Source: an uncultured Acidobacteriota bacterium (GTDB taxonomy: Bacteria > Acidobacteriota > UBA6911). From it: a DNA stretch of 64,000 nt. Below, in pieces: positions 9,902 through 21,560 of this stretch. The translations under genes were made by a program, and so were the position numbers. The number at the start of each line of letters is the position of its first letter. The first letter of the stretch is position 1. The notes below the pieces were generated by a model. That model was not told where the DNA came from. It saw only the letters and a program-made list of their open reading frames with translations, and did not search any database. The stretch spans positions 64,001-128,000 of the forward strand of contig CAWJKZ010000017.1 in assembly GCA_963843575.1 (NCBI GenBank). The letters run 5' to 3'.

Positions 9902-10987
9902 ATGAACAGGATCCTGTCCACGACGAACTGGCTCAACTACCTGCTGATTTTTGTGCCCGTCGCGATCGTGCTGGAATACGTGGTCCACCCCAGCGCCATC
10001 TGCATCTTCGCCGTGTCGGCGCTGGCCATCGTCCCTCTTGCCGGCATCATGGGGGACGCCACCGAACAGCTGGCCGGGAAGCTGGGCGAGGGACTCGGCG
10101 GTCTGCTCAATGCCACCTTCGGCAACGCGGCCGAACTTATCATCGCCGTCCTGGCCCTGCAGGCGGGGCTGCACGACCTGGTGAAAGCGTCGATCACCGG
10201 ATCGATCATCGGCAACGTCCTGCTGGTGTTCGGCCTGAGCGTGGTGGTCGGCGGCACGAAGTACAGCACCCAGAAGTTCAACAAGACCGCCGCCAGCGTG
10301 GGCACGACCATGCTCGTCCTCAGCGCCGTCAGCCTGGTCGTGCCGGCCATCTTCCACCTGATCGCACCCAGCGAGATCAGGGTCGAACGCGAGCTCAGCT
10401 TCGAAATCGCCGTGGTCCTGACCATCACCTACGCTCTGAGCCTGCTGTTCACCCTCAAGACCCACCGGTTTCTGTACGCCGGGGGACACGGCGGGCACGA
10501 GGGAACGGCGCCGCACCAACCCGCCTGGCACGCGACCCTCCGGCTGCTGGGCGCGACGGCCCTGGTCGCCCTGATGAGCGAGTTCCTGATCGGCGCGGTC
10601 GACGAGACCGCCCGCAGCCTGGGGATGAACGAAGTCTTCGTCGGCGTCATTCTCGTCGCGATCATCGGGAACGCCGCCGAGCACTCGACCGCTGTGATCG
10701 CGGCGATGAAGAACAAAATGGACCTGGCGGTTAATATCGCGGTGGGATCCTCGATCCAGATCGCGCTCTTCGTCGCGCCCTTGATCCTCTTCCTCAGCTA
10801 TCTCGTGGGCCCCGCCCCGATGGATCTGCACTTTACGACCTTCGAGGTGATGGCCGTGGTCCTGGCCGTCGCGATCATGGCCCTGATCTCTCAGGACGGC
10901 GAGTCCAACTGGATGGAAGGGGTCCAGCTGCTGGCGGTCTACACGATCCTCGGCATCGCCTTTTACTTCCTGCCGGCCGGCCATTGA
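9902..10987 (+). CDS. cax: Ca2+/H+ antiporter (CaCA family)
   Basis: [13 protein letters not shown] and IIGNAAEH alpha-repeats, [20 protein letters not shown]. Confidence 0.95.
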
Positions 10988-11028: not shown

Positions 11029-11404
11029 CAAGTGCGTTCGGGCTTCAGAGGCTGTCCAACGGTTGATCTGCCCGATCCAAACAAGATACAAGTGGGTTCG
11101 GGCTTCAGCCCGGAGGCAGTTTGCGGTCGCTGTAACGTGCGCCCGTCGCCACATGGATCAGATCAAAAGACGTCCGGGCTGAACAGGCTGTCCAACGGTT
11201 GACGTTCAATCCGGACGAACTGAAGTAATCTGGAGTGCGGCGCCTCGGCGCCGCTTTCACTCGTCCTACGGCAGGAATGCTCGGCGCCTCGGCGCCACGC
11301 CGAATTGCGAGATGCGACCCTGCGACCTCGGCCTTTGGTGGCGTCGAGCCAGTCGAGCCGCCGCACTTCACAATCAACCGTTGGACAGCCGCTTCAGCCC
11401 GGAC
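11029..11404. mobile_element. Nested REP/MITE composite
   Basis: REP-A left arm + TTCA, left TIR GAGGCTGTCCAACGGTTGA (11048-11066), an internal REPIN, a second left TIR (11184-11202), GGAGTGCGGC-type REPs, right TIR (11374-11392), then TTCA + REP-A right arm. Confidence 0.8.
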
Positions 11405-11513: not shown

Positions 11514-12928
11514 ATGCCCAACGAATCTCTGAACATCAATCTCCAGAGCGAGACTCTGAACGTCACGGGCGCGATCCTCGACCGCTACAACGTCCCGGGG
11601 CCGCGCTACACGAGTTATCCGACCGCGCCCGAGTGGCTCGACACGTTCGGGCCCGACGATTACGACGAGGTCGTCCGCGCCTCCAACGCCGCGCGCCCGG
11701 CTGCCCCCGTCTCCCTCTACATGCATCTCCCTTTCTGCGAGCGGCTGTGTCTCTTCTGCGGCTGCAACGTGGTCATCAACAGGAACCACGACGTGGCGCT
11801 CGACTACCTCGAGGCGCTCCGTTGGGAAATTGACCAGCTCGCCGGAAGACTGGACCGGGGGCGGCAGCGTCGTCCAGCTGCACTGGGGGGGCGGGACCCC
11901 GACCTATCTTGACGCCTCCCAGCTCGAGCAGCTCTTCCAGTACACGCGTGAGCGGTTCAACTTCGCGCCGGACGCCGAGATCGGGATAGAGGTCGACCCG
12001 CGCGCCACCCGGTCAGACCAGCTGCGCGTGCTGCGCCGCCTGGGTTTCAACCGGATCTCGATGGGCATCCAGGACTTCAACCCCGAGGTGCAGCGGACCG
12101 TACACCGGATCCAGCCCTACGAGATGACGCGCGCGCTTTACGACCTCTGCCGCGAGCTTAAGTTCGATTCGGTGAACGTCGACCTGATCTACGGGCTTCC
12201 GCACCAGACGCCGGAATCGTTCGTCGACTCGGTCGACAAGGTGATCCTGATGCGGCCGGACCGGGTCGCGATGTTCAGCTACGCGCACGTCCCGTGGCTG
12301 AAGAAGCAGCAGGGGTCGTTTGCGCGCCACATACCGCAGGGGATGGACAAGTTCAGGATCTTCCGCGCCGGCATCGAGCGGTTCACGGAGGCGGGCTACA
12401 CCTATATCGGGATGGATCATTTCGCGCTGCCGGACGACGAACTCTGTCTCGCCCAACGGAACCGCACCCTGCACCGGAACTTCCAGGGATACACGACCAA
12501 AGCCGGCGCCGACCTGTTCGGGGTCGGGGTCAGCTCCATCAGCGGCGTGGGCCGCGCATACGCCCAGAACCAGCGCGACCTGAAGCTGTATTACGGCGCA
12601 GTCGGGCAGAGGACGCTCCCGACCATGCGCGGCACACGGCTCGACGCGGACGACGCCCTCCGGCGGGAGGTGATCAGCCGCATCCTGTGCCACTGCGTGC
12701 TGCACAAAGTCGGAGATCGAGTCGCAGTTCGACGTCCGGTTCGACGAGTATTTCGGCGACGAGCTCGACCGCCTGCGCCGGCTCGAGGACGACGGCCTGG
12801 TCGTGCTGTCCGCCGACCAGGTCGCCGTGACCTCGCTCGGCCGCATCTTCATCCGGAACGTCGGGATGGTGTTCGACCGGTACCTGCAGAAGCCGAAGGA
12901 CCGGCCGGTCTTTTCCAAAACCCTGTGA
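11514..12928 (+). CDS. hemN: Oxygen-independent coproporphyrinogen III oxidase (frameshifts ~11860 and ~12710)
   Basis: GPRYTSYPTA, HLPFCERLCLFCGC (radical SAM), HWGGGTPT, IGMDHFALP, LHRNFQGY; C-terminus ...FSKTL*. Confidence 0.93.
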
Positions 12929-21305: not shown

Positions 21306-21473
21306 GAGGCTATCCAATGGTTTGATCTGCCCGAGGGCTTTCAGCCCGGACGCAGTTTGCGGGCGCTAATGTGCGCCCGTCCCCACATAGATCAGATCAA
21401 AAGACGTCCGGGCTGAAGCCCGGACCCACTTGTTTTACGGGCAGGGCGGGTGGTTCAACCGTTGGACAGCCTC
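21306..21473. mobile_element. 168-bp MITE with ~19-bp TIRs inserted in the loop of a REP-A and carrying a REPIN
   Basis: GAGGCTATCCAATGGTTTGA ... TCAACCGTTGGACAGCCTC, flanked by gtgggtccgggc-tgaa and ttca-gcccggac. Confidence 0.82.
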
Positions 21474-21560
21474 TTCAGCCCGGACTCACTTGGAATCTTG
21501 AATCCCGCAGCACGAATCCGCTACCTTCTGTCGCAGGGTAAGCAGAACAGGAGGTTGAAA

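Follow-up and report, generated by a model that had tools for sequence, protein, structure and literature searches.

REPs are GC-rich palindromes of 20-40 nt, present in hundreds of copies and often arranged as inverted doublets, the REPINs. Movement of the latter is ascribed to a tyrosine (HUH) transposase, and they lack both the terminal repeats of DDE-type elements and target duplications. REP-targeting elements of the IS110 type, such as IS621 and ISPpu9, have a DEDD transposase and no TIRs, and they insert without the usual duplication. In the accessible text of PMC1525189, the REP-specific IS belong to the IS3 (IS1397, ISKpn1, ISPsy8), IS110 (IS621, ISPpu9, ISPpu10, ISPa11), IS4 (ISRm22), IS256 (ISRm5) and IS5 (ISNm1106) families, and IS1182 is not named among the REP-targeting families. 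According to the accessible parts of PMC5678879 and PMC4923244, the IS1182-family elements IS1272 and TnSha1 of staphylococci insert into hairpins of varied sequence and delete the stem-loop wholly or partly, with no target duplication. The model presented in PMC5678879 includes loop duplication as a possible "pathway c", which was not observed there, and the available text of both papers cites Siguier et al. 2015 for some IS1182 members that target palindromes. ISPse1 of Paracoccus seriniphilus, also from the IS1182 family, was captured as a functional element of 1653 bp with 16-bp inverted repeats and 4-bp direct repeats (accessible text of PMC3281130). The literature search for IS1182 elements in REP loops, or for MITEs with REPIN cargo, found no paper. 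A preprint considered as a precedent (bioRxiv 10.1101/2024.06.02.596822) was rejected, because "IS5/IS1182" appears in it solely with reference to an E. coli element that inserts at a deletion.

The window, that is, the whole 64-kb stretch of DNA analysed here, comes from an uncultured Acidobacteriota bacterium with an assembly of 6.68 Mb that is 88% complete (G000). Two intergenic loci of the window, at 11 and 21 kb (Table 1), very probably hold non-autonomous MITEs of an IS1182-family IS that targets hairpin loops.

Table 1. Repeat features of the two loci (window positions) and tandem arrays of the genome (contig positions).
Feature	Coordinates	Strand	Remark
Target REP left arm, C-AAGTGC-GTTCGGGC	11029..11043	+	fits the genome left-arm consensus CAAGTGG-GTCCGGGC
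REP loop TTCA, target-site duplication copy 1	11044..11047	+	same TTCA at 11393-11396
TIR 1, GAGGCTGTCCAACGGTTGA, "B-type" end, 19 nt	11048..11066	+	18/19 nt as in the left end of the G113 full-length IS
22-nt B-type subterminal segment of the REPIN-carrying MITE	11067..11088	+	found with TIR or truncated TIR, not with free REPINs
Cargo REPIN, GTGG-type: CAAGTGG-GTTCGGGC-TTCA-GCCCGGAG, spacer, GTCCGGGC-TGAA	11089..11183	+	stops at the loop of the right REP
Cargo REPIN right part: GTCCGGGC, then TGAA	11172-11179, 11180-11183	+	direct reading
Complete 209-nt "CD" MITE in the cargo REP loop	11184..11392	+	one of 14 aligned copies at different loci, median pairwise identity 0.95
CD MITE left end CAGGCTGTCCAACGGTTGA	11184-11202		second end of the 11-kb locus
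CD MITE interior, GGAG-type REP units	11203-11373		direct reading
CD MITE inverse end TCAACCGTTGGACAGCCGC	11374-11392		abuts the outer TTCA copy
TTCA, target-site duplication copy 2	11393..11396	+	direct reading
Target REP right arm GCCCGGAC	11397..11404	+	remainder of the resident REPIN runs to about 11470
21-kb left flank GTCCGGGC-TGAA	21294-21305		direct reading
168-nt REPIN-carrying ("AB") MITE	21306..21473	-	degenerate B end 21306-21325 and A end 21455-21473
21-kb degenerate end GAGGCTATCCAATGGTTTGA	21306-21325		direct reading
21-kb inverse end	21455-21473		followed by TTCA-GCCCGGAC at 21474-21485
Tandem arrays	G000:C2:19900-20330 vs G000:C10:450400-450700; C22:39729-40012; C15:174611-174899		

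The 11-kb locus is, on direct reading, a repeat mosaic between a gene that ends near 10987 and another that starts at 11514. An earlier sequence-only reading had placed ends exactly after a REP loop at 11048, 11184 and 21306, with inverse ends stopping exactly before TTCA-GCCCGGAC at 11392 and 21473. It had also described a direct duplication of the outer TTCA at 11 kb, a second left end in the loop of a REP that is itself cargo, and cargo that differs between copies. Direct reading bears out each of these points: the two outer TTCA copies are identical, the loop TGAA of the cargo REP is followed immediately by the second end, and one interior is a GTGG-type REPIN whereas the other consists of GGAG-type REP units. 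The locus contains three ends, not four, since the right end is common to the inner and outer elements. The target arm upstream of the first end is part of a decayed resident REPIN lying between the two genes. The outer flanks together rebuild one canonical left REP of this REPIN, with its TTCA duplicated, and the inner cargo REP is without its right arm. The loop copies at the 21-kb locus are inverted (TGAA...TTCA), with no direct duplication.

The REP of this genome is a 20-nt hairpin, GTCCGGGC-TTCA-GCCCGGAC, which folds as DNA at -9.6 kcal/mol (z = -3.96). The assembly contains 326 intact GTCCGGGC-N4-GCCCGGAC hairpins, with TTCA as the loop in 157 and TGAA in 144. Inverted doublets are represented by 132 adjacent pairs 30-100 nt apart, and the target and cargo repeats both have the properties of REPs and REPINs. 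The flanks of the REP are asymmetric, with CAAGTGG on one side and GTCTTTTG or GCTGTTTG on the other. What follows GTCCGGGC plus TTCA or TGAA is GCCCGGAC in 492 cases (both strands counted), GAGGCTGT in 57 and the next commonest sequence in 8. Two Y1_Tnp matches were found in G000, the copy on C21 having an internal stop; a RAYT-like Y1 (IS200/RAYT-like) gene, G000:C27:64006-64743, scores 42.6 bits on NF047646, for which the cut-off is 80. No GTCCGGGC REPs were found beside the two Y1_Tnp genes. A genome of the same genus, G001, contains two GTCCGGGC REPs and one end. The GGAG-type repeat of which the CD interior is made is present there in dozens of copies (57 query matches, mostly to that part, for example G001:C5:128591-129676). 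Being almost devoid of these REPs and yet rich in the GGAG-type repeat, G001 indicates that REP families turn over fast within the genus.

The association of the ends with REP loops extends to the whole genome. The 17-nt TIR core has four matches in the window against 0.20 expected, a number reached in none of 100 shuffles, and genome-wide it has 182 matches at up to three mismatches, 70 of them exact. End copies with at most two mismatches number 149, and in 128 of them the preceding bases are GA. A REP half-stem (up to 2/8 mismatches) plus a 4-nt loop precedes 117 of the 149 in exact register, so that most copies are inside REP loops and not outside them. Given the asymmetry of the REP flanks, direct loop duplication predicts TTCA on CAAGTGG arms and TGAA on the other arms, read from outward to inward. 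This prediction holds in 72 cases (CAAGTGG arm with TTCA in 32, other arm with TGAA in 40) versus 20 with non-canonical combinations.

According to their interiors, the elements fall into two main families. The CD elements are 99-226 nt long and built of GGAG-type REP units; their 14 copies align end to end at unrelated loci, and the window copy is a full-length member. Directly inside the D end, at 11203-11217 of the window and in all CD copies, stands CG-TTCAATCCGGACG, which resembles a loop followed by a right REP arm with mutations, as though the element had taken up half of a REP. The AB elements, of which seven copies are complete (168-194 nt), have the layout end, 22 nt, whole REPIN, 22 nt and end. 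In the clearest case, G000:C6:7853-8044, the element occupies the right REP of a further REPIN, and TGAA is present as a direct duplication. The 22-nt segments accompany an end or a truncated end and not free REPINs, and thus belong to the MITE, whereas the REPIN spacers within AB elements vary in type and orientation. Nested insertions exist among these MITEs, and the interiors joined to these ends are of at least four kinds. The elements are short, non-coding, TIR-bounded and multi-copy, with unique flanks and target duplication, and the CD family is a classical MITE. The gene-less copies at many loci agree with the non-autonomous, multi-copy element proposed from the window.

Many ends have no partner: 128 of the 182 core matches are unpaired, and A-type ends outnumber B-type ends by 59 to 13. 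Much of the A-end excess lies in tandem arrays with a period of about 135 nt, in which each unit consists of part of a REPIN and one A-type end. Between two near-identical contigs (C2/C10) with identical flanks the array copy number is 3 versus 1, so the arrays grow by recombination and not by transposition. Small contigs of G000 repeat parts of larger ones at 86-99% identity (C2/C10, C6/C19, C16/C24, C5/C14/C16, C15/C20); heterogeneity between strains or genuinely duplicated sequence in the assembly could be the cause. A facing pair of one C-type and one D-type end, separated by 2.5 kb of sequence in which no long ORF is convincing, occurs at G000:C24:512980-515516 and may represent a CD element interrupted by a different insertion.

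The parent of these MITEs was found in related genomes. The end was searched in 41 and then in 137 of them, and it is present in 19 of the 50 other genomes of the same family; in the other families of the class, single 1-mismatch matches occurred at the level of the reversed-pattern control. Two same-family Acidobacteriota carry a full-length IS with the same ends, of 1907 bp in G113 and 1915 bp in G121. The 486-aa product of the G113 ORF matches the NCBIfam model NF033551, "IS1182 family transposase", with 387 bits (cut-off 270) and contains the Pfam domains DUF772, DDE_Tnp_1 and DDE_Tnp_1_6. The G121 transposase is 73% identical to it, the lengths being 486-487 aa. The 19-nt consensus of the window agrees with the G113 IS at 18/19 positions on the left and 17/19 on the right, and the similarity between MITEs and parent is confined to these 19 nt. 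The likeness to IS1182-type ends suggested by the sequence-only reading is therefore well founded, and the ends are not an invariant part of a composite repeat devoid of a cognate transposase, since such a transposase is present, in the relatives and not in this assembly. An IS1182-family parent is also borne out by the shared TIRs, the transposase between the same ends and the 4-bp duplication or palindromic target.

A 66-aa ORF just upstream of the transposase is kept in both full-length copies (L035 511-711; L042 2950-3150, minus strand). The two ORFs are very similar, have no Pfam or NCBIfam match and could encode an accessory or regulatory protein of this IS lineage. In another genome, an 815-bp element with the same ends (L001 476-1290, G019:C46) has a 112-aa gene of the 23S rRNA-intervening-sequence/four-helix-bundle family (PF05635, TIGR02436) in place of the transposase, and no clear hairpin or duplication was found in its flanks. 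This suggests that small four-helix-bundle genes can ride in IS1182-type cassettes. The end of a multicopy element in G020 matches the window consensus at 18/19 positions; its copies stand at contig ends with the interior unassembled, and the three places with the 33-nt pattern are all at contig ends. The interior of this element gave 0 matches in a metagenome scan, and a scan of the genome collection with the TTAA variant of the end returned only a 98-nt MITE and unrelated matches.

Within G000, none of the repeats longer than 500 bp has these ends, and no TIR was found at contig ends. No cognate autonomous IS1182 copy was found in this 88%-complete assembly, a completeness at which absence of the transposase from the genome is not proven. 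The assembly has a single IS1182-like gene, G000:C9:197889-199141; it is broken, shows 30-36% identity and is bounded by other ends. In the broken element around it (G000:C9:197786-199330) the transposase is spread over three frames, and the inverted repeats, GAGTCCGTCCGAGAA in form, are similar to the MITE ends without being the same.

Both full-length IS lie in 4-nt hairpin loops with a perfect direct duplication: ccccgggc-GTGA-[IS]-GTGA-gcccgggg in G113 and cccgacc-GTAA-[IS]-GTAA-ggtcggg in G121. Removal of the G121 copy leaves GCCCGACC-GTAA-GGTCGGGA, a motif that occurs 86 times in G121 and is its own REP. Among 22 elements from eight other genomes, with differing stems, the 4-nt repeats are perfectly direct in 11, perfectly inverted in two and neither in nine. 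The corresponding numbers for the 27 paired elements of G000 are nine, six and 12. The inverted pairs of G000 include the 11-kb inner pair; the 21-kb copy is also inverted and stands outside the 27. TTCA and TGAA differ only at the two central bases, within the long quasi-palindrome formed by REP arm and end. The inverted pairs may consequently result from later correction of the palindrome, or from elements in adjacent REPs that recombined with each other. The combination of a conserved transposon end with a variable host hairpin is an argument for shape as the recognised feature.

The 19-bp TIRs would be bound by a DDE transposase acting in trans; the enzyme is missing from this assembly and is present in related Acidobacteriota as a 1.9-kb IS. 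Both strands of a GC-rich hairpin, once extruded, would then be joined to the element where the 4-nt loop meets the stem, and repair of the 4-nt stagger would leave the loop duplicated. The target would be picked by shape and not by sequence, in keeping with elements that sit in each genome's own REP hairpins. The simplest history of the 11-kb locus has three steps. A REPIN-carrying AB element would have entered the left REP of the resident REPIN, duplicating TTCA. Subsequently, a CD MITE would have entered the loop of the cargo REP, and the loss of about 60 nt by deletion between the two right ends, which form a direct repeat, would have reduced the ends from four to three. A B...C composite that moved as one unit would have the same outcome.

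Alleles with an empty site were sought in three comparisons, and none was found for any locus. The intergenic sequences of the near-duplicate contigs C6 and C19 differ, and they yielded no clean pair of a filled and an empty site. The orthologous flanks in G001 have 88-89% identity, and the 1085-nt spacer is taken up by GGAG-type repeats, with no REP of the GTCCGGGC type. In public reads from small-share runs (at most 0.18 of words), contigs aligned at 85% likeness contained no joint bypassing the element. A loose end of one read contig runs past 11183 as an intact REP; this is repeated sequence, so that the locus is not assignable.

The same repeats could have been assembled in other ways. 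The REPIN could be the active party, moved by a RAYT-type tyrosine transposase and either inserting into a small MITE or carrying resident MITEs along. On this view, the TIR elements would be dead passengers, and a DDE transposase would have contributed little to their spread. G000 does possess a RAYT-like gene and no cognate transposase, but this gene lies below its family cut-off and has no GTCCGGGC REPs beside it. The constant TIR plus 22-nt junctions around variable AB spacers, the surplus of A-type ends, the many unpaired ends and the D ends that mostly adjoin a GTGG arm are all compatible with a mobile REPIN; the CD elements, on the other hand, have unique flanks, and their removal rebuilds single canonical REPs. 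The same ends also occur in unrelated REPs of other genera and on the full-length IS, which points to the TIR element as the inserting party and makes a REPIN-driven origin improbable.

A further alternative is that the TIR is a fixed module of a composite palindromic repeat, spread by recombination or replication slippage, with the loop "duplication" as a by-product of the palindrome. Such a symmetry predicts TGAA...TTCA, as in the 6/27 pairs with inverted loops, but direct, non-palindromic repeats are found in 9/27 pairs here, in 11/22 in the relatives and at both full-length IS. Recombination could account for the arrays of about 135 nt, with one end per unit and with copy numbers that differ between near-identical contigs of the same flanks. 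It fits poorly with ends that join at least four interiors and different REP families, and with a transposase gene between the same ends in the relatives. This explanation is strongly disfavoured and is given very little weight. The IS1182-type MITEs that target hairpin loops are thus the preferred reading.

The sequence-only reading had gone further and proposed that the element, by targeting and transporting its own target site, is a self-amplifying route of REP spread that needs no RAYT. The targeting of REP loops and the REPIN cargo, the latter in one subfamily, stand; the self-amplifying route is at most plausible, only about one fifth of REP arms lying in a MITE context. Of the intact REPs, 68/326 lie within 60 nt inside an end. 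Among 453 CAAGTGG arms, 96 have MITE-type upstream sequence, while 349 have unique upstream sequence and no end. The MITE-linked REPs are therefore at most about a fifth. The scarcity of both REPs and ends in G001 indicates that REPs and MITEs expanded together in this lineage, and a spread of REPs through the MITE is plausible but unproven. A positive feedback between MITE and REPIN, in which loop-only landing and REPIN cargo would let each jump plant two new sites and a substantial share of REPs would be placed by IS1182-type transposition instead of by a RAYT, is possible though rather doubtful. If it were true, G001 would represent the state before the joint expansion.

These elements provide natural evidence from several genomes that one IS1182 lineage inserts at the loop of an extruded hairpin and duplicates it, the outcome drawn in the IS1272 model and not observed there. 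The same 19-bp ends in different REP families of different genera point to a choice by shape. To annotators, the insertions explain "split REPs" and mosaic intergenic repeats, which form a large class in Acidobacteriota. They also offer REP biology a testable idea, namely that a MITE mobilised by a DDE transposase, and itself dependent on REPs as targets, can carry REP doublets along as hitch-hikers.

Compared with the described systems, the elements share with IS1272 and TnSha1, as presented in the accessible text on these, the transposase family, short TIRs, hairpin targets of little sequence conservation and duplicated end sequences. Unlike IS1272, which according to the same text deletes the stem-loop, they keep the stems and duplicate the 4-nt loop; furthermore, the targets here are the REPs of the genome and the elements are mostly gene-less MITEs. 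ISPse1 has in common with them the IS1182 family and the 4-bp direct repeats; it comes from a different phylum, and the accessible text on it mentions no hairpin or REP target. The REP-targeting IS of the IS3, IS110, IS4, IS256 and IS5 families, as far as the available text describes them, likewise insert into REPs, but with transposases of different families. IS110 members have no inverted repeats and act by site-specific recombination, and the present elements are not of that kind: an IS110-type identity is ruled out by the 19-bp inverted repeats and the DDE_Tnp_1-type enzyme of the parent. With REPIN/RAYT systems the common feature is the inverted REP doublet, although here the REPINs are target and passenger and not the element itself. 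Since hairpin targeting (IS1272) and 4-bp duplications (ISPse1) have both been published for the IS1182 family, the elements of this window represent a rich new example and no new kind of element.
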